Shown one piece after another: positions 3,404 to 40,030 of a DNA stretch of 40,030 nucleotides (positions are counted from its first letter, which is position 1; each line of letters opens with the position of its first letter). The notes under the pieces were generated by a model, which was not told the DNA's origin, did no database searches, and worked only from the letters and a program-made list of their open reading frames with translations. The position numbers and the translations under genes were made by a program. Location of the stretch: positions 1-40,030 of IMG/VR virus record IMGVR_UViG_3300045988_064761; one strand, 5' to 3'. Source of the DNA: a virus.

Positions 3404-3518
3404 AATCTTCCCCCAGATACTTTTTGATTAGTTCCGCTTGTTCATCTTTCGGGAGCTTTGCAAGACCATCAACGATGGCGCGTTTCAAATGCTCCCTGTA
3501 CTGTTTTTCTTTCTCCAT
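3384..3518 (-). CDS. Small hypothetical protein (44 aa), below the ORF-track length cutoff
   Basis: AAAGGAGAG lies 4 nt upstream of ATG 3518. Protein MEKEKQYREHLKRAIVDGLAKLPKDEQAELIKKYLGEDYGKSKS. Confidence 0.4.
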   Translation of the reverse strand: MEKEKQYREHLKRAIVDGLAKLPKDEQAELIKKYLGEDYGKSKS

Positions 3519-3578
3519 TGTACTCTCCTTTCGTAGATATGTCAAAATTTATATAATATATAAAAGGTTGGTGCTACT

Positions 3579-4196
3579 ATGAAATTTGGAATGAGAAAAC
3601 CGTCTATTAAAAAATCATTTAAAGCCAGAACAACAGGAAGATTGAAGCGCTCTGTAAAAAAGGCTGTAAATCCTTTCTATGGTAAAAAAGGCATTGGATT
3701 TTTAAAAAACCCAGTTAAATCAATAAAGGATTCTATATACAAAAAGACGACATTCAGCTTTCTCGACTTGTTCAGAGTAAGCAAAAAGAAAGGCGGCAAA
3801 AAGAAGAACGCCATTGCATTAGAAAACAGAGAACATCGAAGGAAAGTAGCTGTTGAAACAGTTGAAAATAACGCAGAGCAAAAGCAGTTAAAAGCCCAGC
3901 TTGCCGCGCAGGACGCCCAAATCAAAGCTATCCAAGACGCAGAGGATGAATACAAGAAAACAAAAGACGCCGAAAAGCTCATTCTGTTTTGGGAAGATAT
4001 TTGGAATAATGGTGGTGTCATATTCAATGGGGCATATTGGACGTTCAGACTTCCAGACTTGTACATCAAGCTCGGCAGATATGATGACGCCATAAAGATA
4101 TTAAATATGATAACCAATCCATTTTACACCGAAAAACGTCAAAAGTACCTAGAAAAGATTTCTGCGCTGAAGACGCGTAACAAAGAAAGTAAGTAA
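3579..4196 (+). CDS. Hypothetical protein (205 aa): Lys-rich N-terminus, coiled middle, helical-repeat-like C-terminus; A+T-rich moron
   Basis: TATAAT at 3552-3557 lies upstream. The ORF is visibly more A+T-rich than the phage backbone. Sits between the repressor and the integrase. Confidence 0.65.
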   Translation: MKFGMRKPSIKKSFKARTTGRLKRSVKKAVNPFYGKKGIGFLKNPVKSIKDSIYKKTTFSFLDLFRVSKKKGGKKKNAIALENREHRRKVAVETVENNAEQKQLKAQLAAQDAQIKAIQDAEDEYKKTKDAEKLILFWEDIWNNGGVIFNGAYWTFRLPDLYIKLGRYDDAIKILNMITNPFYTEKRQKYLEKISALKTRNKESK

Positions 4197-4470
4197 AACT
4201 GTTCGTTGTATTTACAATGATATTACAATGCACAGTTGTATTCAATCGGCAAAATGCACAAAATGCCGTCTGCGCTCTGTGTAGTCCGCGTTATTGGACT
4301 GTAGTTATCAACAACTATTATGATAGCCGTTGAAAACTGCAAAACGTGTCGCAGATACGAAGTCAGCAAACAAAAAAAGTCCCTGCCGGTGCTGGCACAC
4401 AGACAAGGACAAGAGGTTGCCCGCGAAAGCGGACGGCCATATTATATCAGATTAAAGAGAGGTTGTCCAT

Positions 4471-5556
4471 ATGAAACGAACAAACACGGCAAAATGGATT
4501 GACAGCGCGAACCGCTGGCAGATAAACGTGCAGAAAGACGGAGTGCGCAAAACCTTTACCAGCGCCAAACCGGGGCGCACAGGGCAGCGGGAAGCCAACA
4601 AAAAAGCAGATGAATGGTTGGATAAAGGCGTAAAGACGGAACGCATTAAGGTCTCTGACGCATGGGAACGGTTGTTACAGCAGAAAAGACTTGTGTCTGA
4701 TGCAGAATACAAAAACATGGCATCGTTTGGCCGCGCCCATTTGCTGCCAGCCATCGGAAATAAGTTAATAAAATCCGTTACGGAACAGGATTTTCAACAA
4801 ATTATAGATTATTCGTTTCGCCACCCGCAGGGAATGAGCAAAGAGCCATTATCCAAAAAGACGTTACAGAACTATGCCAACTACTGTAAGCAGTTCGTCA
4901 ATTTTTGCCGAAAATCAAAATGGACAACGCTTGAGCTTGATGAGTTACAGATTCCGGCAGCGTCCAGAAAAAAAGGAAAGAACGTGCTGACAGTTGAAGC
5001 GCTGAACACGTTGCTAAAAGTGGATACGACCATCATGCGCGGGAAATCTGTTCACGATGAATACATAAATTACTATAGGTTCCAAGTGCTAACAGGTATG
5101 CGCCCCGGGGAAATGCGAGGGCTACAATGGGAAGACGTTGACGGGAATTTGTGCAGGTTGAAGCAGGCTATCAATGCACACGGTCAAATCACGCAGGGAA
5201 AAAACGAAAACGCATTGCGCACGGTAGTGCTATCCAGACGCGCAGTGGACGTGCTGGAAGCTCAGAAAGCCGTGACTGGAAAGCAGACGTACATCTTCCC
5301 CATGGCATCCATGCACACCTACTATCACCGCTGGCAGCGCTATCAGCGTTCTAATGACATGCCGGAGCTGAGTCTTTACGAACTGCGCCACACGTTTGTG
5401 AGTATTGCAAAGGAGTTGCCGACTGGCGAGTTAAAGCAGCTAGTCGGGCATAGCGAGGATATGGACACCTACGGCACATACTCCCACTACATCGCTGGAG
5501 ATGACGAACGGACAGCCAAAAACCTACAAGAAATCTTTGATAGATTGGTGGACTAA
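4471..5556 (+). CDS. int: Tyrosine recombinase / phage integrase
   Basis: Contains LTGMRPGEMRGLQWEDV, LYELRHTFVS and LVGHSEDMDTYGTYSHY, the R..HxxR..H..Y signature. Adjacent to attP. Confidence 0.92.
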   Translation: MKRTNTAKWIDSANRWQINVQKDGVRKTFTSAKPGRTGQREANKKADEWLDKGVKTERIKVSDAWERLLQQKRLVSDAEYKNMASFGRAHLLPAIGNKLIKSVTEQDFQQIIDYSFRHPQGMSKEPLSKKTLQNYANYCKQFVNFCRKSKWTTLELDELQIPAASRKKGKNVLTVEALNTLLKVDTTIMRGKSVHDEYINYYRFQVLTGMRPGEMRGLQWEDVDGNLCRLKQAINAHGQITQGKNENALRTVVLSRRAVDVLEAQKAVTGKQTYIFPMASMHTYYHRWQRYQRSNDMPELSLYELRHTFVSIAKELPTGELKQLVGHSEDMDTYGTYSHYIAGDDERTAKNLQEIFDRLVD

Positions 5557-5580
5557 AAAGTACACACTAAAAGTACACAC
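5556..5580 (+). repeat. attP arm-type sites: two direct copies of aaaagtacacac
   Basis: AGTACAC at 5559-5565 and 5572-5578. The same heptamer recurs on the other side of the core. Confidence 0.6.
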
Positions 5581-5681
5581 TTTTTTTCTTAAATGTATGA
5601 AATAATAGAAAAAATATGTGACAAAGCAAAAAATATAGCAATATACCGCTATATTTTTAATCACTAAAAGCATTGTGTATA

Positions 5682-5705
5682 GTTCGAGTCCTGTCACCTC
5701 GACCA
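5682..5705 (+). other. attP core: 3' end of a tRNA gene (T-loop, T-stem 3' strand, acceptor 3' strand, A-CCA)
   Basis: GTTCGAGTCCTGTCACCTCGACCA. The sequence 5' of it does not complete a T-stem or a cloverleaf, so this is a fragment and not a gene. Confidence 0.65.
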
Positions 5706-5712
5706 CAACAAA

Positions 5713-5750
5713 TGCCGTAGATTCGTTTAAATCTACGGCATTTTCTTTTT
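5713..5750 (+). terminator. Rho-independent terminator immediately after the tRNA fragment
   Basis: Perfect 10-bp stem tgccgtagat/atctacggca, 8-nt loop, then TTTTCTTTTT. Confidence 0.8.
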
Positions 5751-5752
5751 CA

Positions 5753-5773
5753 AGTACACGTTTTAGTACACAC
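5753..5773 (+). repeat. attP arm-type sites (P' side): AGTACAC at 5753-5759 and 5765-5771
   Basis: Same heptamer and same orientation as 5559/5572. An inverted copy (gtgtac) lies near 5805. Confidence 0.55.
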
Positions 5774-5777
5774 TTAC

Positions 5778-5915
5778 TTATTTTCTCTGCAAACTGTGTA
5801 CCAAATCATTATACACATCCGGACGTGCTTCTTTCAGCGCATCCATAAACTCGTCCAGCACACGCCACACTCGCCCGGTATCGGCCTTTTTTACAATCTC
5901 CAAAAATTCACTCAT
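5778..5915 (-). CDS. Cargo operon gene H: 45-aa helical protein, paralogous to the C-terminus of gene G
   Basis: ATG 5915 overlaps the stop of G. Protein MSEFLEIVKKADTGRVWRVLDEFMDALKEARPDVYNDLVHSLQRK resembles G's ALNVLDELMSALYVANPKVYNGVMRKLERL. Confidence 0.5.
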   Translation of the reverse strand: MSEFLEIVKKADTGRVWRVLDEFMDALKEARPDVYNDLVHSLQRK

Positions 5916-6261
5916 CCTGTAAACGCTCCAATTTCCGCATTACGCCATTATAAACTTTAGGGTTTGCTACATACAAGGCCGACATAAGCTCATCCAGCAC
6001 GTTCAGCGCTGCTGCGATGTCTACGTTTGACACAGCCCGTAAAAAGTCACTGCTGCCAACAGCAGCCCTTGTAGACGGCTCTGCCGCTTCGTAATAGCGC
6101 ACAGGCTCTTGCAGTTTTGCTTTCTGCGGAAAATGGGACGCATCTGCAAGACGCTGATTTTTCACAACATACAGCGCTGCCAAATTTTTAACTCTGGTCA
6201 TGGTGAGTTCGCTGTTTTCGATTTCGGCTATAGCGCCGTCAATCTCTCGCACGTCAACCAT
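5908..6261 (-). CDS. Cargo operon gene G: hypothetical protein (117 aa)
   Basis: SD GAGGTG upstream. Tightly linked to F and H. Confidence 0.7.
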   Translation of the reverse strand: MVDVREIDGAIAEIENSELTMTRVKNLAALYVVKNQRLADASHFPQKAKLQEPVRYYEAAEPSTRAAVGSSDFLRAVSNVDIAAALNVLDELMSALYVANPKVYNGVMRKLERLQDE

Positions 6262-6278
6262 AGCCCTTACACCTCACT

Positions 6279-6674
6279 TTAACCGTTTCGCATCGTGTCA
6301 ATGCAGCGCTGGATGACTTCCCTGTCTTTGCTGTCAGCCCCGCGCATAATATCTTCCATGCGGGAAATCAGTGAATCGCGCCCATCGTCCATGCTGTAGT
6401 GCCCGCGCACATAATGCGAACCGCGCCGCGCATAGCTGCTGCCGCGTCCATAATTGCCGCGCATATTGGCACTCCAATCACCATCGCGGCTGTAATCCTC
6501 ATCGCGGCTGTAACCGTCATCTTCCAGCATGACAATTTTGTCGATATTTTTGATAGTGTCAGTCAGCTTGTGAACAGTTTCCAAGTCACCGGCAGACATT
6601 TCACCTTTCTTTCCGATTTCGTCCAGTTCTGCGCACAGCATGTCTTTCAAGTCATACAAAACTCTTTTACTCAT
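6279..6674 (-). CDS. Cargo operon gene F: helical ends flanking an R/G/Y/S/D-rich low-complexity centre (131 aa)
   Basis: SD AAAGGAG upstream. Centre reads DDGYSRDEDYSRDGDWSANMRGNYGRGSSYARRGSHYVRGHYSMDDGRD. Confidence 0.75.
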   Translation of the reverse strand: MSKRVLYDLKDMLCAELDEIGKKGEMSAGDLETVHKLTDTIKNIDKIVMLEDDGYSRDEDYSRDGDWSANMRGNYGRGSSYARRGSHYVRGHYSMDDGRDSLISRMEDIMRGADSKDREVIQRCIDTMRNG

Positions 6675-6686
6675 GGTTTACTCCTT

Positions 6687-7109
6687 TCAGCTCACTCTCT
6701 CGACCACAAAGTTTGCGTTCGCAAACAAAACGGTTTGTGTGCTTGTATTTTCGGCGGCAACGGTCAGGCAGCAGCCGCGCGGAACTTCAACAAAAGACGT
6801 CACATAGATATTAAAGAAGTTTTCTACTGCTGCCGGTGTCACGGTTGCAGTCGCACTGTTCAGCGGTTCACCGTTGATAGCAAGCGCCGCCGTAATAGCT
6901 TCCACTGTGCCGCCTGTAGGGATAGCAACGTTTGCACCGAAGCCCACTTTGAAACGCGCTTTGCACTGGTTCGTAATGCCGCGCAGCGTAACAATACCGG
7001 CGCCTTCTCTGTGTACGACACAGCCCTTGCCCGCTACTGCCGTTTCCGTCAGTGGCACGTTCTGGCCTGCTGCCACGCTCACGGTATTGGCGTTTGTAAA
7101 TTCAGCCAT
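6687..7109 (-). CDS. Cargo operon gene E: beta-rich 140-aa protein (possible jelly-roll, BclA-CTD/C1q-like pattern)
   Basis: ATG 7109 follows AAAGGAATGA. Protein MAEFTNANTVSVAAGQNVPL...GIVTLRG...ARFKVGFGANV...INGEPL...GCCLTVAAEN...FVVERVS. The ORF-track start at 7187 lies upstream of a terminator hairpin. Confidence 0.7.
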   Translation of the reverse strand: MAEFTNANTVSVAAGQNVPLTETAVAGKGCVVHREGAGIVTLRGITNQCKARFKVGFGANVAIPTGGTVEAITAALAINGEPLNSATATVTPAAVENFFNIYVTSFVEVPRGCCLTVAAENTSTQTVLFANANFVVERVS

Positions 7110-7123
7110 AAAATCATTCCTTT

Positions 7124-7157
7124 CAAAAAAATAGTGGCGGGACGATTGCCCCGCCAC
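7124..7157 (-). terminator. Intrinsic terminator inside the cargo operon (between genes D and E)
   Basis: Minus strand reads GTGGCGGG-gcaatcgt-CCCGCCAC followed by TATTTTTTTG. An 8-bp G+C-rich stem. Confidence 0.7.
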
Positions 7158-7220
7158 ATTTTGCATCATCGGCACGGGGCCGAACATGTCGGATGTCCCG
7201 ACAAGTTGCCGTATTCGGTT

Positions 7221-8000
7221 TTAGCAGCCGCAGCCGTTGCAGCCGCCGCAATTCCCGTACTGATACGGCGCCGGAACCTGGAAAGCCGGAACAGGGCGGG
7301 GGTTGTAATAGGCGAGCTGCCCACTCATATAGGCTTTCAGCGTTTCATTCTGCGCAGCCTGACTTGCGGCAAGCTGTGCGGCAAAAAGCTGCTGGTTCTG
7401 CTCGGCAATTTTGGCATCCTTGGCCTCAATGCGCTGCGCCGTCAGTGCGTCAAGCACAGCGCGGGCGTTCGCGTTCTGGTTTTCGATGATATCCCGAGTG
7501 CCGTTCTGAATGGTCTGGCGCGTGTCGCAAGCCTGCGTAGCGAGGTTGTAGTTTACGCCCTGGATAGCCTCGCGGGTCTCGCAGCAGCAATTTGCCTGCT
7601 GCATCTGCATGGCAAAGAGCTGCTGCATAAATGCGGCCTGCTGGTTTGCGCGGCTGATTTCAGCCGACATAAAGCCGTTGCTCATGCCCTGCTGTACGCC
7701 GTTGATAAGCTGCGCCTGCTGATAAAAGCCATCGCACAAGCCATTGTTCACGTTGTCAATTTTGCGCTCAATGTTGGCAAAATCCGACGTAAGAACGTAA
7801 CCGTCAACCACCCCGGCGCCGTTGCCAGCACCAAAGCCGCCATTGCCGCCCCAGTTACCGCCCCAGCCGCAGAAAACGAACAGGAAAAGGATAATGATCC
7901 ACCACGCACCGTCACCGCCGAAGCCCCAGCCGTTGCCGTTACCGCTGTTCGCGGGCTGAACAGGCATCGTCATTACAGTGCCATCCGAAGATAAACTCAT
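7221..8000 (-). CDS. Cargo operon gene D: Gly/Trp-rich TM segment, Q/N-rich coiled region, Cys-rich C-terminus (259 aa)
   Basis: SD GGGAGA upstream. Contains GNGNGWGFGGDGAWWIIILFLFVFCGWGGNWGGNGGFG, QQANCCCETRE, and C-terminal YQYGNCGGCNGCGC. Confidence 0.8.
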   Translation of the reverse strand: MSLSSDGTVMTMPVQPANSGNGNGWGFGGDGAWWIIILFLFVFCGWGGNWGGNGGFGAGNGAGVVDGYVLTSDFANIERKIDNVNNGLCDGFYQQAQLINGVQQGMSNGFMSAEISRANQQAAFMQQLFAMQMQQANCCCETREAIQGVNYNLATQACDTRQTIQNGTRDIIENQNANARAVLDALTAQRIEAKDAKIAEQNQQLFAAQLAASQAAQNETLKAYMSGQLAYYNPRPVPAFQVPAPYQYGNCGGCNGCGC

Positions 8001-8056
8001 AATTGTTCTCCCTTCAAATTTTCAATTTTTATGTTCACCGTGCGCACGGTTTGAAC

Positions 8057-8275
8057 CTATTTTAAAAAGCTCTGAAACTGCTGCGCCATAGCTTGCAGCT
8101 GGTTTAACTGTTGCTGGCTCATCTTGCCCGATTGCAACAGTTTTTCTACTTCTTGTTTGGGGTCGCCTTGAAAGTTATTGCGGAACTGCTGAAACTGCTG
8201 CATCATCTGCTGGAATTGACCCATAGCGCCGGGCGTACGCCCACCGCCTAAAACGTTAAACAGAGGATTTGGCAT
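8057..8275 (-). CDS. Cargo operon gene C: 72-aa Gln-rich protein
   Basis: AAGGAG lies inside the 3' end of gene B (20-nt overlap). Protein MPNPLFNVLGGGRTPGAMGQFQQMMQQFQQFRNNFQG...QQLNQLQAMAQQFQSFLK. Confidence 0.65.
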   Translation of the reverse strand: MPNPLFNVLGGGRTPGAMGQFQQMMQQFQQFRNNFQGDPKQEVEKLLQSGKMSQQQLNQLQAMAQQFQSFLK

Positions 8276-8726
8276 TTTCGTTCTCCTTTTTCTTTGTCAT
8301 CGGTTTGTCTGCCGTCAGCGCGTCAAAACGGGCTGCCAGCGCGTCAAACTCTGCACGGGTGACAAATTCTCCGGCTTGCGCTTGCGCGGCCTGTGTGTGC
8401 TGTTTCTGTGCCGCTGTGCGTTCCGAATAATCGAAGATGCGCAACGGCTGCGGCATACCGCTGGCATCCACTGTTTTGATATAGAACGAGCTTTTCTCGC
8501 TGTCCATCAAAAGCACGCTGTTCCCCGGCGCACAAAGATACGACTTTGCCGCTTCTTCTCCCTGCACCCAAATAATGGGCGCAGTCTGCTGTGCAGTCTG
8601 TTGCTGCTGCGGATATGCCGCTTGTCGAAGCTGTGCAAGCTGGTCGGGCATGGCCGACGGCATCTGCTGCCCCATCGGGTAATATCCCGGCGCAAATCCG
8701 GGCTGATACGGTACGCCAAACGCCAT
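8256..8726 (-). CDS. Cargo operon gene B: P/Q-rich N-terminus, beta core and Ala-rich helix (156 aa)
   Basis: ATG 8726 follows AAAGGA. Core reads IIWVQGEEAAKSYLCAPGNSVLLMDSEKSSFYIKTVDASGMPQPLRIFDYSE. Confidence 0.7.
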   Translation of the reverse strand: MAFGVPYQPGFAPGYYPMGQQMPSAMPDQLAQLRQAAYPQQQQTAQQTAPIIWVQGEEAAKSYLCAPGNSVLLMDSEKSSFYIKTVDASGMPQPLRIFDYSERTAAQKQHTQAAQAQAGEFVTRAEFDALAARFDALTADKPMTKKKENENAKSSV

Positions 8727-8732
8727 AGTCAA

Positions 8733-9107
8733 TCATCCTTTCTGCCAGTAGTACAGCGGCACTTCATCTCCGCTGTCCCATGTATCCAGCCAATCCCCAT
8801 TTTGCACGCACACAACATGCGTAGCCATTGCCAAAATATACGTGCCGTCCGAGTGGTCTTTTGCAAACTGCGCCACTGTGTAACAATCCGGGCAGCTGTT
8901 TGGCAATGTGTAGCGCTTCCACCCACATCGACGAAGATAACTGCCCCAGACATAGTTTGCAGACGGCATATCATGCAGTTCAAATCCTGCCAGCACCAGC
9001 GCCGCATATACAGCCGCCCACGATTGATGCGTTGCGGCTGCAATGGATCTGACGGTACAATCGCCGACGCGCTTTTGTTCTGGATTTAGGTTTAATTCTC
9101 TGTACAT
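8733..9107 (-). CDS. Cargo operon gene A: 124-aa protein with a Cys-His-Asp arrangement (possible papain-like/C39-like peptidase)
   Basis: SD GAGGA upstream. Contains RVGDCTVRSIAAA ... AMATHVVCVQNGDWLDTWD. Confidence 0.7.
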   Translation of the reverse strand: MYRELNLNPEQKRVGDCTVRSIAAATHQSWAAVYAALVLAGFELHDMPSANYVWGSYLRRCGWKRYTLPNSCPDCYTVAQFAKDHSDGTYILAMATHVVCVQNGDWLDTWDSGDEVPLYYWQKG

Positions 9108-9164
9108 GGTTTTATCCTCTATATTTATTGTAATATTTTACACATTTTCGCGTGCGCCACATCT

Positions 9165-9186
9165 GCGCCAACTTTACGCCAACTTT
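9165..9186. repeat. Two tandem 11-bp repeats ([g/a]cgccaacttt) in the divergent cargo control region
   Basis: gcgccaacttt at 9165-9175 and acgccaacttt at 9176-9186. Confidence 0.8.
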
Positions 9187-9210
9187 TTTATAAAAATCCC
9201 GCAATTCCAC

Positions 9211-9239
9211 TTGACATTACTACGCTAGCGTAGTATAAT
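9211..9239 (+). promoter_or_regulatory. Perfect consensus sigma-70 promoter with a 14-bp palindrome in the spacer
   Basis: TTGACA (9211-9216), 17 nt, TATAAT (9234-9239). The spacer contains CTACGCTAGCGTAG (9220-9233), a perfect palindrome. Confidence 0.75.
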
Positions 9240-9283
9240 ATAGACACAGTAAGAAATAGCCACTTACACGAAAGGAAATAAAA

Positions 9284-9643
9284 ATGAGTAAGCTCGATTT
9301 TAGCGACGCCATCTATAAACAGACCCACGTCCGCATTGACAACAACGCCCTCATCGACGACATCCGCAAGGCCATCAGCACCAGCGAAATGGAGAACGAC
9401 GAGCGCCAGCGCATCACCGGCCAGGATGATGTCATGGAGCGCTGGGAGTACCTCGTCGACTTCCACCGGGACGAGATTCTCGACGACGACGGCGAACTTC
9501 TGCAGGTCACTGACACCGTGAAGGTCATCGAGATCACTATTTACCCGCGCAGCCGTAACTCCGTCTTTGGCCGCGCCGGATTCCCTGTCAATGAGGACAT
9601 CTTCGTTGAACTTCCCGCCGACGCCGACAGCTTTGAAATCTAA
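9284..9643 (+). CDS. Acidic 119-aa protein, function unknown (cargo cassette gene 1)
   Basis: SD AAAGGAAA upstream, 45 nt downstream of the consensus promoter. D/E-rich sequence. Confidence 0.75.
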   Translation: MSKLDFSDAIYKQTHVRIDNNALIDDIRKAISTSEMENDERQRITGQDDVMERWEYLVDFHRDEILDDDGELLQVTDTVKVIEITIYPRSRNSVFGRAGFPVNEDIFVELPADADSFEI

Positions 9644-9656
9644 AAGGAGGCCATCT

Positions 9657-10145
9657 ATGGAAATTTCCCTAAAGGAATACGCCGCCCGGCACAGCCGCGC
9701 CGCGGCGACTGTCCGCCAAAAGGCCATCCGTGGCGGATTTAAGACCGCTCGCCGCGTTGGCCGTGACTGGCTCATTGATGAAGATGAACCCTACATTGAC
9801 GAGCGCTTTGCCATGCCTTCCGCGCCGCCGGACCTGTGGCTTTTGACAAACGGCAGGCACAGCCGCACCATCAGCGACGCCGGTGCCGTCAAAATCGGCA
9901 GTGACGAATTCTCCGCTCTTATTCCCACCGGCGCGGGTGACGGCGAATCCGCCTACTGTATCTATACGCGGGCAGAGCTGGACGCCGTTGGCATCAACAC
10001 CGCCGACCTTCACTACTTCACCCTTGTTTCCGGCAGCTTCAACATCTACGACTACGACTGCGGGTGCGCCGTATCGGAGACTGTAGAAGGAGTCTTCAGC
10101 GTTTTCTATGCGGACGGCATCGTCTTTTTCGTAAAAGCCGAATAA
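9657..10145 (+). CDS. 162-aa protein: N-terminal excisionase/MerR-like HTH plus unknown C-terminal domain (cargo cassette gene 2)
   Basis: AAAGGAGG lies 6 nt upstream of ATG 9657. N-terminus MEISLKEYAARHSRAAATVRQKAIRGGFKTARRVGRDWLIDEDE. Confidence 0.7.
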   Translation: MEISLKEYAARHSRAAATVRQKAIRGGFKTARRVGRDWLIDEDEPYIDERFAMPSAPPDLWLLTNGRHSRTISDAGAVKIGSDEFSALIPTGAGDGESAYCIYTRAELDAVGINTADLHYFTLVSGSFNIYDYDCGCAVSETVEGVFSVFYADGIVFFVKAE

Positions 10146-10200
10146 AATAAAAAAGCGCCCCTCCCGTGTCCACCATGGACACAAGGAGGGGCGCTTTTTA
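10146..10200. terminator. Bidirectional intrinsic terminator
   Basis: 11-bp stem agcgcccctcc/ggaggggcgct plus inner 7-bp stem gtgtcca/tggacac. An A-run lies upstream and a T-run downstream. It ends both convergent units. Confidence 0.85.
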
Positions 10201-10395
10201 TTCAGCCTTCAACTTCCCAACAATCGCCTTTACCCGTCTGTTCACCGTCCGCTCACTCAAATTCAGCTCTGCGGCAATTTCCGCATTCCCAAAGCCGCGC
10301 CGCTTCAAATCCAGCACCGCCTTTTCTTCATCCGTAAGCAGAAAGCACAATTTTTCATACGTCGCCGAATCCAAGCAAAAGCGGTATCGGCACAC
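10198..10395 (-). CDS. Small sigma-70 region-4 / LuxR-type HTH protein
   Basis: Contains LTDEEKAVLDLKRRGFGNAEIAAELNLSERTVNRRVKAIVGKLK. There is no in-frame ATG (GTG 10395 or an internal TTG). Confidence 0.6.
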   Translation of the reverse strand: MCRYRFCLDSATYEKLCFLLTDEEKAVLDLKRRGFGNAEIAAELNLSERTVNRRVKAIVGKLKAE

Positions 10396-10404
10396 ACGCG
10401 GGCC

Positions 10405-10701
10405 TTACTCGGATTTATTTTTCTGCTTTACGCACTGGTTGGCGTAGACCGCCCCCGCCGCGCACAGAACGCCTTGAATGATGGCGGTGAAAACCGCCAT
10501 GGCCGCGTCCTGCCCGCCGCCGATGGGCGACGTCGCCAAAACATACAGCGCCGCCAGCACAATGCCCACCGCGGCCAGCACCGCCGGGATGAGCTTGTCC
10601 GCCACCGCCGTGCTGGTTTTCAGGCAGTATCCCACGAAAATCAGCGCCGGAATCAGCACCAGCAGCTCCGGTTTAATGTAGTTCATGTAGTCGATGTTCA
10701 T
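10405..10701 (-). CDS. Holin (phiLC3/Hol44-like)
   Basis: Three hydrophobic segments. KPELLVLIPALIFVGYCLK..IPAVLAAVGIVLAALYVLA..FTAIIQGVLCAAGAVYANQCVKQ. Sits downstream of the endolysin. Confidence 0.65.
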   Translation of the reverse strand: MNIDYMNYIKPELLVLIPALIFVGYCLKTSTAVADKLIPAVLAAVGIVLAALYVLATSPIGGGQDAAMAVFTAIIQGVLCAAGAVYANQCVKQKNKSE

Positions 10702-10716
10702 AATAAAATCCCTTTC

Positions 10717-11037
10717 TTAATGAATAGGCAGTACCCGCGCCCGGTTGTACAGTTCTGTGCCTGTTCCGTTACCGCCCAGCGCATGGTAGCTCTTGTACAG
10801 ATATTCCAGATTTTTAAGGCCCGCCGTATCGATCCAGCCCTGCGCGATATAAAACGTGCAGACCTGATACAGCCTGTCGTGCAGAATTGCCAGCATCCCA
10901 GCCTTGATGGCGGCTTTTTCTTCTGCGTCGTCCTTGATTTTTTTCGCCAGCTGCCTATAAGCAACCAGCAATCCAGCGGCCAGTACGCCAAAAGCCCACT
11001 CGACCCAGTATTTTATAATCCACTCCGGCACGCTCAA
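10717..11037 (-). CDS. Membrane protein of the lysis cassette (holin/antiholin partner candidate)
   Basis: N-terminal TM segment WVEWAFGVLAAGLLVAY. Overlaps the endolysin stop. Confidence 0.45.
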   Translation of the reverse strand: MSVPEWIIKYWVEWAFGVLAAGLLVAYRQLAKKIKDDAEEKAAIKAGMLAILHDRLYQVCTFYIAQGWIDTAGLKNLEYLYKSYHALGGNGTGTELYNRARVLPIH

Positions 11038-12176
11038 CCCTCCACGTATTTTGCATGGTACGCCCTGTCGTCATCGAGATTGTACTTCTTAGCAACGGCG
11101 TAGAACTCCATAGCGGCGGCGTTCGGCAGGACAACGTGATCCAGCCAGACCTCCTGATGCGTCGGCGCAGCGGGCTTGTCCTCTTTGATGGCGGCATCAT
11201 ACCGCGTCAGGTTGAACTGCTTCACGACAGCCAGCAAGCTCGACGTGTAGGTCGGGCTGGTTGCCCAGCCATCAGCCCGGATGTACTCGCACGCCTTGTT
11301 GATGTCGGTACAGCCGACCAGATTGGAATAGCGCGGCATGGTCGTCAGCTTCTTGATGTAGTCCTCTACACAGGCGGCCATCGTATTGTAGGCGCGGAAA
11401 CCCGCCGTGATGGTGATGTACTTGCTGCCGTCCCACTCCTTCGTGGCCTTGTTGTACACTCTGCCGCTCCAATTGCTGGCCTTGATGCCAAACAGGTTGT
11501 TTGCCTGCACGGCCAGTTCGCTTGTGCCGTAGGCGCTTTCCAAACAGGCTTGTGCAATGCACAGCGACGGCAGAAGATGCGCGTTCAGGCAGCGGCTCTG
11601 GCACTTCTCGACCATGACGTCAATGAACGTCTGCTCCTGCGTCTTGGCTGGCGCAGCGTCGGCCACGTCGCCCTTCAAGCGCTTCGTGACCTGTGCTGCA
11701 ATGTCGGGGAACTTGCTCTTGAGATAGGGGCCGGGGCAGGCGGTAGCCGCGTAGAAGCAGTGCATCGTGAGCGAGCCGTTCTTGTCGCCGGTGTAGGTCA
11801 GTTCCTTGATGCCGTTGCGGCGGCAAATGTCGGTGCAAAGGTCGAGCAGGGCGCCATACGCCTTGTCGCTGACGTGCCAGTCCGGTGCGCCGCTGTCGTT
11901 AGCGACTTCGATAGTAATGGCCCGCTGGTCGTTCCACGGGCTGGAACTGCACCACGACCTGTCCGCCTCGTGGCAGAACAGACCGATACGCCCGCTGGAT
12001 TCGATGGCGTAGTTTGCGCTCATCTGACGTGATGGCCTACTGACAAGAGCGCCGAAAGATTCAAGCGTCATGTTGCCAGCCATGTGATGAACGGTAATCT
12101 TGCTGATGGGCTGGCTGCGGGGCCGGTTGCAGTTTGGGCTGATGGCCGTGTAAACGGCCAGTGCAGAATCACTCAT
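11034..12176 (-). CDS. Endolysin: N-acetylmuramoyl-L-alanine amidase plus glucosaminidase domains
   Basis: Amidase_2-like region ITVHHMAGN...ANYAIESSGRIG...AATACPG. Glucosaminidase-like region AQACLESAYGTSELAVQANNLFGIKA. Confidence 0.85.
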   Translation of the reverse strand: MSDSALAVYTAISPNCNRPRSQPISKITVHHMAGNMTLESFGALVSRPSRQMSANYAIESSGRIGLFCHEADRSWCSSSPWNDQRAITIEVANDSGAPDWHVSDKAYGALLDLCTDICRRNGIKELTYTGDKNGSLTMHCFYAATACPGPYLKSKFPDIAAQVTKRLKGDVADAAPAKTQEQTFIDVMVEKCQSRCLNAHLLPSLCIAQACLESAYGTSELAVQANNLFGIKASNWSGRVYNKATKEWDGSKYITITAGFRAYNTMAACVEDYIKKLTTMPRYSNLVGCTDINKACEYIRADGWATSPTYTSSLLAVVKQFNLTRYDAAIKEDKPAAPTHQEVWLDHVVLPNAAAMEFYAVAKKYNLDDDRAYHAKYVEG

Positions 12177-12557: not shown

Positions 12558-14615
12558 TCATGTTTGCGATGCTACTGCATCTTCCAAATCGGTGATCCGT
12601 TTAATGGGGTCTGCTCGTCCCGTCACAGTCGCGCTATCGGCATCGGTCAGCACGGTGTTCACTCCCGCAAGGGCGGGCAACGGCTGTGCGCCTGTCGCGG
12701 TGAAGGGGATGGGCTCTGCCAGCTTGTAAGCAATTTGTACGGGCGTGCCAGCTGCGTTCTGGGCGGCGAGGTAGGCTTTCCAGTTGTCCGCGTTATCCGG
12801 GATGGTGTCGCCCCAGCGTACTCGGATGCACTGCCACACAATAGCGCATCCTTTTACGGTATTGTTGTTAGATACATCGGCATGTGGGTAATGGCTGCAT
12901 ACATCATTGCCTTTGGTGGGAGCGGCATTGATGGTTCCCTGGATTCTTCCCGTTGTGTAGTACCAATCGGATTTATCTTCAAGAAATTTTCCAAATACCG
13001 TCCAATCCTCTGTGCCATCCAGTGTAATCAGCCGCCAAGCCCGCTTGCCCTCTCCACTCACCGCGTCCACCTCACCGCCATACACGGTTTCAGGCAGGGT
13101 CAGGGTGTTGGTCTGCCCGTTGTATGGTGCGTAGGTGGAGGGAGTAGTGGTGCCTTCAACAACTTCAATTTGGAATTTGAAGTTGTTGAATACTGTGCCA
13201 TTTCGCCAGCATTGCAGCATAAAAACAAGCTCGGTTTCTACCAGCGCAACGTCTCTTGCAATATACACATTAAGGTTTGTGCTGTTTGTATCACCACGGA
13301 AGTAATGATTATAATCCGTAGAGAACAGCGCATAGGCAAAAGTAATGCCGTCACCGCTTCCAAGAGAGGCACTGCCGCCCACCTTTTTGACATACATGGT
13401 GTAGGTTTTTCCCGCGACCCAATGCAGCCGACACGTTCCAATCGTGATATTGCCTTTTCCAGCAAGTGTTCCGTTTAACGTGATATTTTTTTCTGCGTCT
13501 ACTGCTATTTTAATGTCTGAAGAGGAATCTTCTGTGCTTAAAAACTCAATGACATTCTCCCCACACCGATCCACCGTCACGCTGTCACGTCCCTTGATGG
13601 GACGGATGTTTTCCGGTGACGGCGTTCCTGTGCCCTCCTGCATGGGTTCCCAGCTGGCCTTTACCCCCAGCGGGTATCCCGCCACGGGGTAGCACACAAC
13701 AGGGTTGCCGCTTTCTTCAAGCGGCGGGCAGAGCATATCAATGATGTGCTTGCTGCTCCACGGCGCATCCTCGCTCACCGCCGCATCATCAATCTGTACG
13801 CCGTCCTTTCCGGCAGGCCCCTCCGGGCCAACCTCTCCCTGCGGCCCCTGCTCACCGCGCTCACCCTGCGGCCCCTGCTCACCGCGCTCACCCTGCGGGC
13901 CAGTATCACCCCTGGGGCCAACCGGGCCAGTTTCGCCAACAGGCCCCTGCGCGCCGGTATCGCCCTTCTCGCCTTGTACACCCTGAACGCCCTGCTCACC
14001 TTGGGGGCCGCTCGGGCCAGTTGCACCCGTTGCCCCGGTAGGGCCTTGAACTCCCTTTTCTCCTTGCGGCCCCTGCGGGCCTACGGGGCCTCGCGGGCCA
14101 GTATCGCCATTGTCGCCTTTGTCGCCTTTGTCGCCTTTGGCTCCATCCTTGCCGTTAAATTTGCCGTTAGCCGCATCATTCCGCAAGTCATCAGCCGCGC
14201 TCTTTGCTTCCGCGCTGTTCTTTTCTGCGTTAAGTGCAGCCTGCAAAACCTGCGTGGCAAGCGATTCGCTGGGTTTAAACGGCACATCTCCACCAACGTT
14301 TCCGCGTGTAATTACGTTGTATCCCTGCGTTTTTGTGATGCGCTGTACACCATTGGCAACGCCGCAATACACGATAGTGCCCGTACCCTCATTGGCGGTT
14401 GCTTCGGCAGGCACATCAATCAGGCCGTTTTCCGGCAAACGGATTTCAACGGGTTTGCCCTTCGGCGGATTAAACGTTGCCGTTACAGCAAGCCCGCTCC
14501 ACGTATCGTCAAGGGTCACATGCAGCTGCTCGATACCGTAACTGCCAAAAGTGCCAAGCGATAAGTTGCCGGGCCTAACGCTGTATCCTTTCAGCTGTAC
14601 TTCATGCAATGCCAT
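12558..14615 (-). CDS. Tail fibre with a collagen-like (G-X-Y) region
   Basis: ATG 14615 follows GGAGGG. About 39 G-X-Y triplets are encoded at 13800-14153. Confidence 0.85.
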
Positions 14616-14704
14616 TACACGCCCTCCAATCTGGCTTTCGCCGCATCCATCCACTTTTCAGGCACATCTTCAAGTGTCATGCGGCACACATAAAATTGCA
14701 CCAT
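14615..14704 (-). CDS. 29-aa CD1375/XkdX-like small tail-region protein
   Basis: GGGAGGTG lies 7 nt upstream of ATG 14704. Protein MVQFYVCRMTLEDVPEKWMDAAKARLEGV. TAATG overlap with the fibre gene. Confidence 0.45.
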   Translation of the reverse strand: MVQFYVCRMTLEDVPEKWMDAAKARLEGV

Positions 14705-31720: not shown

Positions 31721-31794
31721 TGGCACGGGTGGAAGGTCTTGACCCCTCATCTTGCGGTTTTGGAGACCGCAGTTCTGCATTGAACTACACCCAT
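31721..31794 (-). tRNA. tRNA-Trp (anticodon CCA), non-canonical D and T loops, CCA encoded
   Basis: Hand-folded cloverleaf: ATGGGTG TA GTTC AATGCA GAAC T GCGGT CTCCAAA ACCGC AAGAT GAGGG GTCAAGA CCTTC CACCCGT G CCA. Confidence 0.6.
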
Positions 31795-39589: not shown

Positions 39590-40030
39590 TCGACGGCCTC
39601 CACAAGGTCGCCGTTTTTCAGCTTGTACCAGGTGTCCGCCTTGATGTTTTGACCGTCAACTTTAAAGCACTGCACATCTTTACGATGCCAGTTAAATTCC
39701 TTGTCTCTTTCCCATTCTGCAATCACAATCCAGCATCCTAAAGCGCCTTTAGCTTCACTATCAATGCCGAGCGCAGCAGCAACGCTTTCCTTGCCTGTAA
39801 CAGATGCCGCGCCCTGCCAGCCTGTAGCAGATGCCGTGCCCTGCCAGCCTGTAGCAGATGCCGTGCCCTGCCAGCCTGTAGCAGATGCCGCGCTCTGCCT
39901 GCCTGTAGCAGATGCCGCGCCCTGATCGCCTGTAACAGATGCCGCGCCCTGCCAGCCTGTAACAGATGCCGCGCCCTGATCGCCTGTAACAGATGCCGCG
40001 CCCTGCCAGCCTGTAACAGATGCCGCGCCC
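39586..40030 (-). CDS. DUF7666-like repeat protein, 3' part (stop TGA 39586-39588)
   Basis: Repeats are followed by VTGKESVAAALGIDSEAKGALGCWIVIAEWERDKEFNWHRKDVQCFKVDGQNIKADTWYKLKNGDLVEAVE. The phase matches the 5' part at 1..630. Confidence 0.75.
   Translation of the reverse strand, partial: GAASVTGWQGAASVTGDQGAASVTGWQGAASVTGDQGAASATGRQSAASATGWQGTASATGWQGTASATGWQGAASVTGKESVAAALGIDSEAKGALGCWIVIAEWERDKEFNWHRKDVQCFKVDGQNIKADTWYKLKNGDLVEAVE
39802..40030 (-). repeat. 8 full copies plus 13 nt of the same 27-bp coding repeat (the last 40 nt duplicate nt 1-40)
   Basis: Units start at 39802, 39829 ... 39991. After removing the 40-nt overlap, 18 units remain in the circular gene. Confidence 0.95.

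Follow-up and report, generated by a model that had tools for sequence, protein, structure and literature searches.

Organization of the cassette

The window, that is, the whole stretch of 40,030 nucleotides analysed here (IMG/VR record IMGVR_UViG_3300045988_064761, positions 1 to 40,030), is a temperate siphophage genome of about 40 kb in which nearly all the genes are on the minus strand. The subject of this analysis is a two-gene cassette that lies on the plus strand amid these minus strand phage genes. An earlier note, made from the sequence alone, had drawn attention to this cassette as a pair of genes between a consensus promoter and a strong terminator. Its features are the following.

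9154-9186, plus strand: three phased 11-bp direct repeats (gcgccacatct / gcgccaacttt / acgccaacttt), 25 bp upstream of the -35 hexamer
9211-9239, plus strand: sigma-70/sigma-A-type promoter TTGACA-17-TATAAT, with TTGACA at 9211-9216 and TATAAT at 9234-9239, read directly
9220-9233: putative operator, a perfect 14-bp palindrome, CTACGCTAGCGTAG, which fills the promoter spacer, read directly
9284-9643, plus strand: gene 1, the cargo gene, encoding Y, a protein of 119 amino acids with an isoelectric point (pI) of 4.28 and a net charge of -15
9657-10145, plus strand: gene 2, encoding 162 amino acids, stop codon included in the coordinates
9657-9800, plus strand: N-terminal winged helix-turn-helix (wHTH) of gene 2, about residues 1-48, of the excisionase/MerR type
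9801-10145, plus strand: linker and C-terminal Z domain of gene 2, about residues 57-162, beta-rich, pI 4.24
10150-10199, both strands: bidirectional intrinsic terminator common to the cassette and the convergent lysis operon

Both genes have Shine-Dalgarno sites and the gap between them is 13 nt. The perfect promoter, the acidic protein of 119 residues and the very strong bidirectional terminator that the earlier note had described were all confirmed. The promoter scores 12/12 in the scan and is the sole perfect match in the window, where 4 matches with at most one mismatch were found compared to 0.10 expected from shuffled sequences, and the start of the transcript is predicted near 9246. 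The hairpin at 10150-10199 has a folding free energy of -39.2 kcal/mol (z = -9.2), and it is preceded by an A-run and followed by a U-run (T-run in the DNA).

The predicted operator and the upstream repeats

The perfect 14-bp palindrome in the promoter spacer was also found as the earlier note had it, and it extends to a perfect palindrome of 18 bp, TACTACGCTAGCGTAGTA, at 9218-9235, which takes in the first two letters of the -10 hexamer. The core of the palindrome, CGCTAGCG, is unique in the window, and no second copy of the operator was found elsewhere in the window, including the attP region at 5557-5910. By itself a 14-bp palindrome is not rare in 40 kb; what makes this one non-random is that it lies inside a perfect promoter and is conserved in the relatives described below. 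The interpretation of the site as a strong promoter with a predicted operator in its spacer holds up, and we infer that the gene 2 wHTH would bind the palindrome at 9218-9235 as a dimer.

Upstream of the promoter the two tandem 11-mers reported earlier are indeed present at 9165-9186 and they are part of a three-unit array that begins at 9154. This array is kept in relatives with a varying copy number, there being an extra unit in locus L009 and 4.6 units in L002. The repeats are possibly upstream promoter or curvature elements, or sites of a regulator for the divergent minus strand genes; no sigma-70-type promoter for these genes was found in 9108-9283 by the promoter scan and by inspection. 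A structured 5' untranslated region (UTR), as described for RNA binding by Aca1 and Aca2, was considered for the cassette transcript and is not supported (dG -4.2, z -0.4).

Three further promoters in the window are one mismatch off the consensus (2419-2447, 3517-3545 and 4441-4469, all on the minus strand), and they sit in the low-GC lysogeny region upstream of the integrase gene. The spacer of the one at 2419-2447 (TTGACTACTAGGCGATAAGCTAGTATAAT) also has a dyad, ACTAG...CTAGT.

The proteins Y and wHTH-Z

The AlphaFold2 model of Y is confident, with a predicted local distance difference test (pLDDT) score of 90 and a predicted template modelling score of 0.80, and its elements are in the order alpha-alpha-beta-beta-beta. 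This model had no Foldseek match below E 0.1 in the PDB or BFVD; at the sequence level Y had no significant match in Pfam, PHROGs, PADLOC and NCBIfam, and a PDB sequence search with it found nothing. The Y family comprises about 56 proteins and the ratio of nonsynonymous to synonymous substitution rates (dN/dS) of Y is 0.32, which indicates purifying selection. The same holds for gene 2, where dN/dS is 0.18.

The N-terminal domain of gene 2 in the AlphaFold2 model is beta-alpha-alpha-beta-beta, and Foldseek matched it to RdfS excisionase, lambda gpNu1, BldC and MerR with probabilities of 0.9-0.98 and a root-mean-square deviation of about 2 Å over 42 residues, which bears out the excisionase/MerR-like helix-turn-helix (HTH) N-terminus first proposed for this protein of 162 residues. 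In the Foldseek search of the gene 2 model against the PDB only this domain gave matches and the poorly modelled Z gave none. Neither domain matches Pfam, NCBIfam, PADLOC or PDB sequences, and for genes 1 and 2 no PADLOC family came up at E <= 1. A PDB search with a profile of the gene 2 family found no chain at E <= 10, though Aca structures are deposited there, and Pfam hits to HTH_17 and Exc were seen only in homologues, where they are weak and below threshold (E 0.02-0.03). Profile and structure searches, which the earlier note had named as a way of checking its proposal, thus place the N-terminal domain among the Xis/MerR-type winged helices and leave Y and Z unmatched, and the families that the note could not recognise are both absent from the curated libraries.

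An exhaustive search with a Z profile gave 359 clusters, none of them in Pfam. Z carries the motifs SDAG..K.G, IP(T/N)GxGDG and YDYDCG. Most Z proteins are 170-190 residues long and have an uncharacterised helical N-terminal domain, and fusions to HTH_3, CI-repressor, LacI or MerR_1 domains occur in some members. A resemblance of the GDG motif to DUF4241 was considered and dropped, as no Pfam hit supported it. Both Y and Z are small and acidic (net charge -15 and -10, respectively), and they have no toxin or enzyme signature and no catalytic motifs.

Relatives of the cassette

The comparison took in about 150 related loci, which are referred to by L numbers. When the DNA of 9100-10250 was compared with 50,697 GenBank phages no match was found, and a scan of 185,579 species genomes with peptide patterns specific to gene 2 found no relative. 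With a broader Z profile, relatives of Z were found in three genomes only, all of them Clostridia and including a metagenome-assembled genome of Gemmiger.

In 25 close loci the promoter, the 5' UTR and gene 2 are kept and gene 1 is swapped: its place is taken by Y (of 119 residues, or a form of 111 residues about 46% identical), by an unrelated protein of 82 residues, X, or by an X-Y fusion of 218 residues. Irrespective of gene 1, the hexamers, their distance of 17 nt and a dyad with GCTAGC at its centre are found in 17 distinct relatives, and the hexamers and the spacing are kept also where gene 2 is only about 70% identical and in distant wHTH operons. The dyad in the spacer of these relatives is found as three perfect palindromes, CTAC-GCTAGC-GTAG, CATC-GCTAGC-GATG and CAAC-GCTAGC-GTTG, and in versions with mixed half-sites. 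Some of the imperfect operators are exact reverse complements of each other, namely those of L001 and L002 (CAACGCTAGAGATG / CATCTCTAGCGTTG) and those of L011 and L014 (CATCTCTAGCGATG / CATCGCTAGAGATG); either the dyad was flipped, or an identical change of a half-site came about on opposite sides.

The wHTH itself was found in 94 viral loci, where most copies are stand-alone proteins of 61-88 residues. Where it has a C-terminal partner this is Z, a helical domain W (in proteins of 140 residues), X (in L135) or the C-terminal end of Cas8c. The recognition helix and wing show almost no variation (TVRQKAxRGGFKTAxxxGRDW). The design of promoter and spacer dyad recurs, in an unchanged register, in quite different operons as follows.

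L036: TTGACA-aagCTACGTTAAAGTAG-TATTAT
L070: TTGACA-ataCTACGC...-TATAAT
L096-119: TTTACA-atgCTACTTTAGAGTAG-TATAAT

Relatives of the wHTH in phages come nearly always after a consensus promoter whose spacer has a dyad in this register. In the 26 distinct promoter variants seen upstream of wHTH operons, the hexamers depart from the consensus by two mismatches at most. At spacer positions 4-17 these variants have a mean of 4.65 of 7 complementary pairs compared to 1.85 +/- 0.23 when shuffled, the maximum in 2000 shuffles being 2.69; the sequences are related, hence this comparison is not a probability, and their contexts span unrelated operons and organisms that differ in G+C content. This co-occurrence of the wHTH and the spacer dyad throughout the family is strong indirect evidence that the wHTH would bind the dyad and autoregulate. 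The gene 2 wHTH is therefore a putative Aca-like autorepressor, and the earlier suggestion that the excisionase/MerR-like HTH protein is the likely autoregulator of its own promoter stands on the conserved pairing of wHTH and dyad. Co-variation between the outer operator bases and residues of the wHTH was uninformative, the helix and wing being nearly invariant and the outer bases variable.

What the same chassis of promoter and wHTH gene drives in sister phages bears directly on the function of the cassette. In L033-35 and L093 the first gene of the operon encodes the type I-C anti-CRISPR AcrIC5, a protein of 58 residues (PF22147, E 3.1e-26, 91.7 bits vs a threshold of 27), and next comes a wHTH-W gene that is 78-84% identical to the N-terminal domain of gene 2; L093 has an extra acidic gene of 105 codons between the two. 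The promoter of these operons, TTTACA-ttgtagaGCTAGCgctg-TATTAT-atagaca, is homologous to that of the window, with which it shares the GCTAGC core and the 'atagaca' after the -10 hexamer. In L121/L123 (about 3500-6000) a wHTH gene encoding 77 residues heads an operon with a DUF5131 protein and an ArdC-type anti-restriction protein (ArdcN, E 3e-25; MPTase-PolyVal, a zincin metallopeptidase, E 7e-35), and in L120 a wHTH gene encoding 68 residues follows an ADP-ribosylglycohydrolase gene. Finally, in P0063 (L070, 384-872), a protein of 162 residues, the wHTH is joined to the C-terminal end of Cas8c/Csd1; the match to PF09709 covers positions 446-556 of 559 and, with E 4.7e-8, passes the Pfam threshold. 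The gene for P0063 has a terminator and a TTGACA-17-TATAAT promoter to itself, and CTACGC occurs in that promoter. In type I-C systems the C-terminal region of Cas8c is also made separately as the small subunit Cas11c (bioRxiv 10.1101/2020.04.18.045682), and it is possible that P0063 would act as a phage-encoded mimic of Cas11c. Between the W domain and the Cas8c-like C-terminal domain of P0063 no similarity beyond the wHTH was found.

In nearly all close and intermediate relatives the convergent neighbour of the cassette is a homologue (57-98% identical) of the LuxR-like gene that is found beside it in the window. The end of the lysis operon is a hotspot of variable content, in which the wHTH gene is preceded by Y, X, X-Y, an unrelated gene of 84 codons or no upstream gene, and in which the wHTH is alone or fused to Z or W.

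Y, Z and X in other arrangements

Y and Z each occur also without this wHTH. A Y of 110 residues is encoded in L039-42 by the first gene of a two-gene plus strand islet at the prophage edge, followed by an HTH_3 gene encoding 68 residues; the islet promoter, TTGAAA-17-TACAAT, has the perfect inverted repeat GTACCGCtAAAGCGGTAC in its spacer and a second copy about 55 bp upstream. In L039 this spacer operator, at about 5870-5955, is the perfect inverted repeat GTACCGC(N)AAAGCGGTAC in two copies, and the flank proximal to the -35 hexamer, TTTGTGCAnnTTGCCTATT, is common to L039 and L033. Likewise, in L029-32 an islet next to terS opens with a gene for a Z of 123 residues, after which comes an HTH_3 gene encoding 82 residues; here the promoter is TTGCAA-17-TATAAT, with an 18-bp repeat in the spacer and again downstream (in L029 at about 6905-6975, the direct repeat AACCGGACGTTATTAGCC in two copies). 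These cargo-plus-HTH_3 islets of L029 and L039 have the same design as the cassette, an operator in a 17-bp spacer, with unrelated sites. X is found fused C-terminally to the wHTH in L135 (1288-1677, 39% identity) and is also found alone, and in the X-Y fusions of 218 residues in L016 (4679-5335), L017 and L023 it is N-terminal.

The cassette as a candidate anti-defence operon

Our reading of these data, to which we give a slight balance of probability, is that the cassette is an anti-defence operon of the acr-aca type, in which the autorepressor is Aca-like but of a novel kind and the build is that of AcrIIA1. It most likely sits in an accessory-gene hotspot by the lysis genes of a temperate phage of gut Clostridia, and the earlier description of an accessory (moron-like) cassette near a prophage end is retained. 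The reading draws on anatomy, conservation and the association with known anti-defence genes. The cassette is a short phage operon between a promoter and a terminator with a DNA-binding domain in its last gene, and its perfect -35 and -10 hexamers enclose an 18-bp palindrome in a design that is conserved family-wide, which is how acr-aca operons and their promoters are laid out. An anti-defence operon is favoured over a defence or TA module because the same chassis drives AcrIC5, ArdC and the Cas8c C-terminal fusion in sister phages, because the cargo is acidic and lacks a toxin or enzyme signature, and because genes 1 and 2 do not strictly co-occur.

If so, host RNA polymerase would fire the promoter at 9211-9239 in an immediate burst upon entry of the phage DNA, and at a low level in the lysogen, and the transcript would give the acidic Y and wHTH-Z. 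As wHTH-Z accumulates, a dimer of its N-terminal winged helix would occupy the spacer palindrome, occlude RNA polymerase and thereby turn the operon off by negative autoregulation. Promoters of the MerR type have over-long spacers of 19-20 bp and are activated by distortion of the DNA. Since the spacer of the cassette promoter is of the optimal 17 bp and not 19-20 bp as at MerR-activated promoters, occupancy of the operator should repress. Y would be the inhibitor cargo, and Z possibly a second one, that binds and blocks a component of host immunity; alternatively, Z would provide dimerisation of the repressor. Y is accordingly a candidate inhibitor of host defence, and for Z the two roles, second cargo or effector on the one hand and dimerisation or sensor domain of the regulator on the other, are about equally probable. 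Because of the links to AcrIC5 and Cas8c, type I-C CRISPR-Cas is the leading single target, which we would name as a possible but doubtful one; restriction or another system may be the target instead.

Several observations weigh against an anti-defence function. The window encodes no known Acr or anti-defence family, so the case is made by the association of the regulator's homologues and by architecture. Members of the wHTH family of about 60% identity adjoin serine recombinase, IS30 transposase or ParB-like genes, and therefore the regulator is not specific to anti-defence cargo. The fusion of Z to unrelated HTH classes (HTH_3, CI repressor, LacI and MerR_1) also fits a regulatory or oligomerisation domain, and the model of Z is of low confidence, with pLDDT below 50 at residues 50-56 and 68-96. 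As to the small HTH_3 proteins that accompany Y and Z, these are no less similar to HigA/HipB antitoxins and to restriction-modification controller proteins than to any others. Lastly, the only lead to a host and its defence repertoire is that relatives of Z are in Clostridia and Gemmiger genomes.

One of these observations, the fusions of Z, also speaks for a regulatory switch. In that case wHTH-Z would be an ordinary phage transcription factor in which Z serves dimerisation or sensing, Y would be a small modulator of the antirepressor or anti-sigma kind, and the pair would tune the phage's own programme (lysis-lysogeny or late genes) and would not target host immunity. Z is fused to at least four HTH classes elsewhere and is always accompanied by a DNA-binding protein; the Z proteins of L046-52 are in a regulatory region just upstream of terS, by an HTH_26 gene; and the cassette itself lies between the lysis operon and genes without an obvious promoter, with the phased 11-bp repeats in the shared intergenic region. 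We nevertheless regard such a switch as unlikely. The operator is present only in the cassette's own promoter and no other target in the phage is visible, gene 1 is freely exchanged (Y, X, X-Y, the 84-codon gene or none), as a core regulator would not be expected to be, AcrIC5 and ArdC are carried by the same chassis, and stand-alone wHTH proteins of 66 residues show that the C-terminal domain is dispensable for the regulator.

The earlier note had proposed for the cassette a lysogen-expressed toxin-antitoxin (TA), abortive infection (Abi), defence or conversion class, and superinfection exclusion may be added to these; one product would be harmful or protective and the HTH protein would be its autoregulating antidote. 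Modules of the higBA type have the gene order cargo then HTH, and the cassette shares with them this order, the two-gene operon, the operator-bearing promoter and the HTH in one partner, and it lies near the prophage end; the resemblance of the HTH_3 partners of Y and Z to HigA/HipB antitoxins points the same way. That class is not favoured by what was found, and we consider it distinctly improbable: no toxin or defence family was matched in PADLOC, Pfam and NCBIfam, both candidate proteins are strongly acidic, the partners are separable and interchangeable (Y gives way to X, X-Y or other cargo, and both Y and Z are also found singly beside another HTH gene), it would be unusual for a toxin to be joined in cis to the HTH antidote, and the sister cassettes hold anti-defence and not defence genes. 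The note had also allowed that homology might reveal an ordinary excisionase-plus-accessory pair; on that reading the N-terminal domain of gene 2, as a recombination directionality factor, would bend attP/attR for the nearby integrase. The fold does match RdfS, Xis-type and gpNu1 winged helices, homologues have the weak Exc/HTH_17 hits, the integrase gene is 4.1 kb away, and distant wHTH homologues adjoin recombinases in L036 and L127. This alternative is nonetheless very remote, as the candidate site is the palindrome in the cassette's own promoter only and is not near attP, where the region at 5557-5910 has other repeats (AAGTACACAC), seven genes lie between the cassette and int, and close wHTH homologues are in AcrIC5 operons without an integrase nearby.

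Comparison with known systems

The candidate anti-defence operon is closest in build to AcrIIA1 of Listeria prophages, in which an N-terminal HTH represses the acr promoter via a conserved palindrome and the C-terminal domain inhibits Cas9; the AcrIIA1 N-terminal domain is also found with other C-terminal domains (bioRxiv 10.1101/787200). Like AcrIIA1, and also AcrIIA13-15, AcrIF24 and AcrIE10, gene 2 has an N-terminal DNA-binding domain fused to a C-terminal domain (bioRxiv 10.1101/787200; PMC9410906; PMC10901769). With AcrIIA1 the cassette further shares a conserved palindrome inside the operon's own strong promoter, a DNA-binding domain that is more widespread than any of its varied C-terminal domains (here Z, W, X, the Cas8c C-terminus or none), further small inhibitor genes (a candidate in the present case) in the operon and the setting of a temperate-phage accessory locus. 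It differs in that there is no sequence or structural homology, the N-terminal domain of AcrIIA1 being an all-helical Xre-type HTH and that of gene 2 a beta-alpha-alpha-beta-beta winged helix, in that the HTH-fused gene is the last of the operon here, and in that the activity of Z is only predicted.

In canonical acr-aca promoters the -35 and -10 hexamers are consensus, the core promoter contains an inverted repeat, and Aca acts as the repressor (PMC9410906); the operons combine repression by a co-encoded DNA-binding protein with variable small acidic cargo (PMC9410906; PMC6765145). The cassette resembles them as a short operon in a mobile element that begins with small acidic cargo of a variable kind and ends with a small DNA-binding gene that is conserved (PMC9410906; PMC6765145; PMC12658196; PMC13551039), and in that the regulator serves as an anchor for 'guilt-by-association'. 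It differs from them in its regulator, which by sequence is in none of the families Aca1-Aca14 and is of another fold class, Aca1-Aca13 being helical HTH proteins and Aca14 a ribbon-helix-helix protein (PMC12658196; PMC13551039), with the helical bundles of Xre, HTH_24, DUF1870 or similar type; this placement outside Aca1-Aca14 was made from Pfam, NCBIfam, the PDB profile and the fold, and not every Aca sequence was compared directly. It differs also in that its single operator is wholly within the 17-bp spacer and in that no known Acr is in the window. With the AcrIC5 loci the link is one of homology, since the sister operons of L033-35 and L093 have AcrIC5 together with a homologous promoter and a homologous wHTH gene. 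Orthologues of AcrIC5 are spread over Pseudomonas, Firmicutes and Actinobacteria (PMC7913775) and are paired with aca1 in Pseudomonas and with AP2-domain genes elsewhere (PMC7913775; bioRxiv 10.1101/2023.05.22.541795). In the window, however, Y is in the place of AcrIC5, and there is no similarity between the two. Acr loci of C. difficile phages adjoin the lysis module (bioRxiv 10.1101/2023.05.22.541795).

MerR, BldC and the Xis-type directionality factors share the fold of the N-terminal domain, and as with MerR the predicted site is a dyad in the promoter spacer. The MerR models of Pfam gave no match to gene 2, and only the winged-HTH fold fits that family; the spacer is of 17 bp, the coiled coil and effector domain of MerR are absent, and the C-terminal domain is beta-rich. 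Xis and BldC bind direct repeats and not a palindrome in their own promoter. Of the type II TA systems only the predicted autoregulation fits, no toxin family having been found in Pfam, NCBIfam or PADLOC.

Anti-defence operons that are regulated by Aca and contain a bifunctional HTH fusion are a known kind of system, and Y, Z and X are undescribed families. A more specific proposal, which we offer tentatively and think possible though short of probable, is that the wHTH founds a new, structurally distinct family of Aca-like autorepressors, acting via a dyad within a consensus promoter's spacer, and that the operon in the window encodes new anti-CRISPR or anti-defence families, one or two of them, arranged in the bifunctional manner of AcrIIA1. 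The wHTH would then mark a hotspot in gut Clostridia phages of undescribed anti-defence proteins, Y, Z and X, and the wHTH-Cas11c-like fusion would poison the type I-C Cascade. If this is true, there would be a new anchor from which to seek anti-defence genes by guilt-by-association in the phages of gut Clostridia, including Oscillospiraceae such as Gemmiger, where few such genes are known. Two parts of the anchor are searchable, the small wHTH of the Xis/MerR type and the promoter, which is consensus and has a 14-bp dyad occupying positions 4-17 of its spacer. Pipelines that need a Pfam HTH match (criteria in PMC9765179) would probably miss the regulator, because gene 2 has no Pfam hit and its homologues reach only E ~0.03 on HTH_17. 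The inhibitor candidates nominated in this way would be Y, with its confident model and no structural relative, Z, with its large uncharacterised family, and X; the Cas8c C-terminal/Cas11c-like fusion suggests subunit mimicry against type I-C systems, and Aca-type regulators would range beyond helical HTH and ribbon-helix-helix proteins.

The phage genome around the cassette

The genes on either side of the cassette are listed below.

4471-5556: tyrosine integrase, 4.1 kb from gene 2
5908-9107, minus strand: seven small genes between the cassette and attP, without a Pfam family
7221-8000, minus strand: one of these seven, protein of 259 amino acids, Gly/Cys/Gln-rich, with a hydrophobic segment
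8733-9107, minus strand: another of the seven, protein of 124 amino acids, a member of PHROG 3754
10198-10395, minus strand: HTH protein of 65 amino acids of the LuxR/GerE / sigma-70 region 4 type, encoded by the last gene of the lysis operon
10405-10701: Hol44-type holin of the lysis block
11034-12176: endolysin of the lysis block, with Amidase_2 and Glucosaminidase domains

The cassette is about 3.3 kb from the attP side, which adjoins the integrase, and in an integrated relative, L003, host DNA with tRNA-synthetase genes starts about 2.8 kb from the cassette. The location near a prophage end and the orientation against the phage genes, both pointed out earlier, are thereby confirmed. The bidirectional terminator separates the seven small minus strand genes from the late operon, and the 11-bp repeats, variable in copy number, sit upstream of these seven genes. 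The attP-like intergenic region at 5557-5910 has repeated AAGTACACAC motifs and a terminator-like hairpin, aaatgccgtagattcgtttaaatctacggcatttt, and in it no similarity to the cassette operator was found.

The ends of the window overlap by 40 bases inside a 27-bp tandem array, and the contig is for this reason probably circular. The unit of the array is AGATGCCGCGCCCTGCCAGCCTGTAGC, of which there are 11 copies at 1-298 and 8.8 copies at 39793-40030, and the two end arrays are probably a single array of about 20 copies that spans the junction of a circular or permuted phage genome. The array is open in some frames on both strands and it could be a 9-residue protein repeat or an iteron array. At 12558-14654 on the minus strand a tail-fibre-like protein of 698 residues is encoded with a long collagen-like Gly-X-Y tract, which corresponds to 27-bp and 9-bp tandem repeats at 13833-13910 and 14104-14139. 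The phage genome also contains a tRNA-Trp (CCA) gene, at 31721-31794 on the minus strand.

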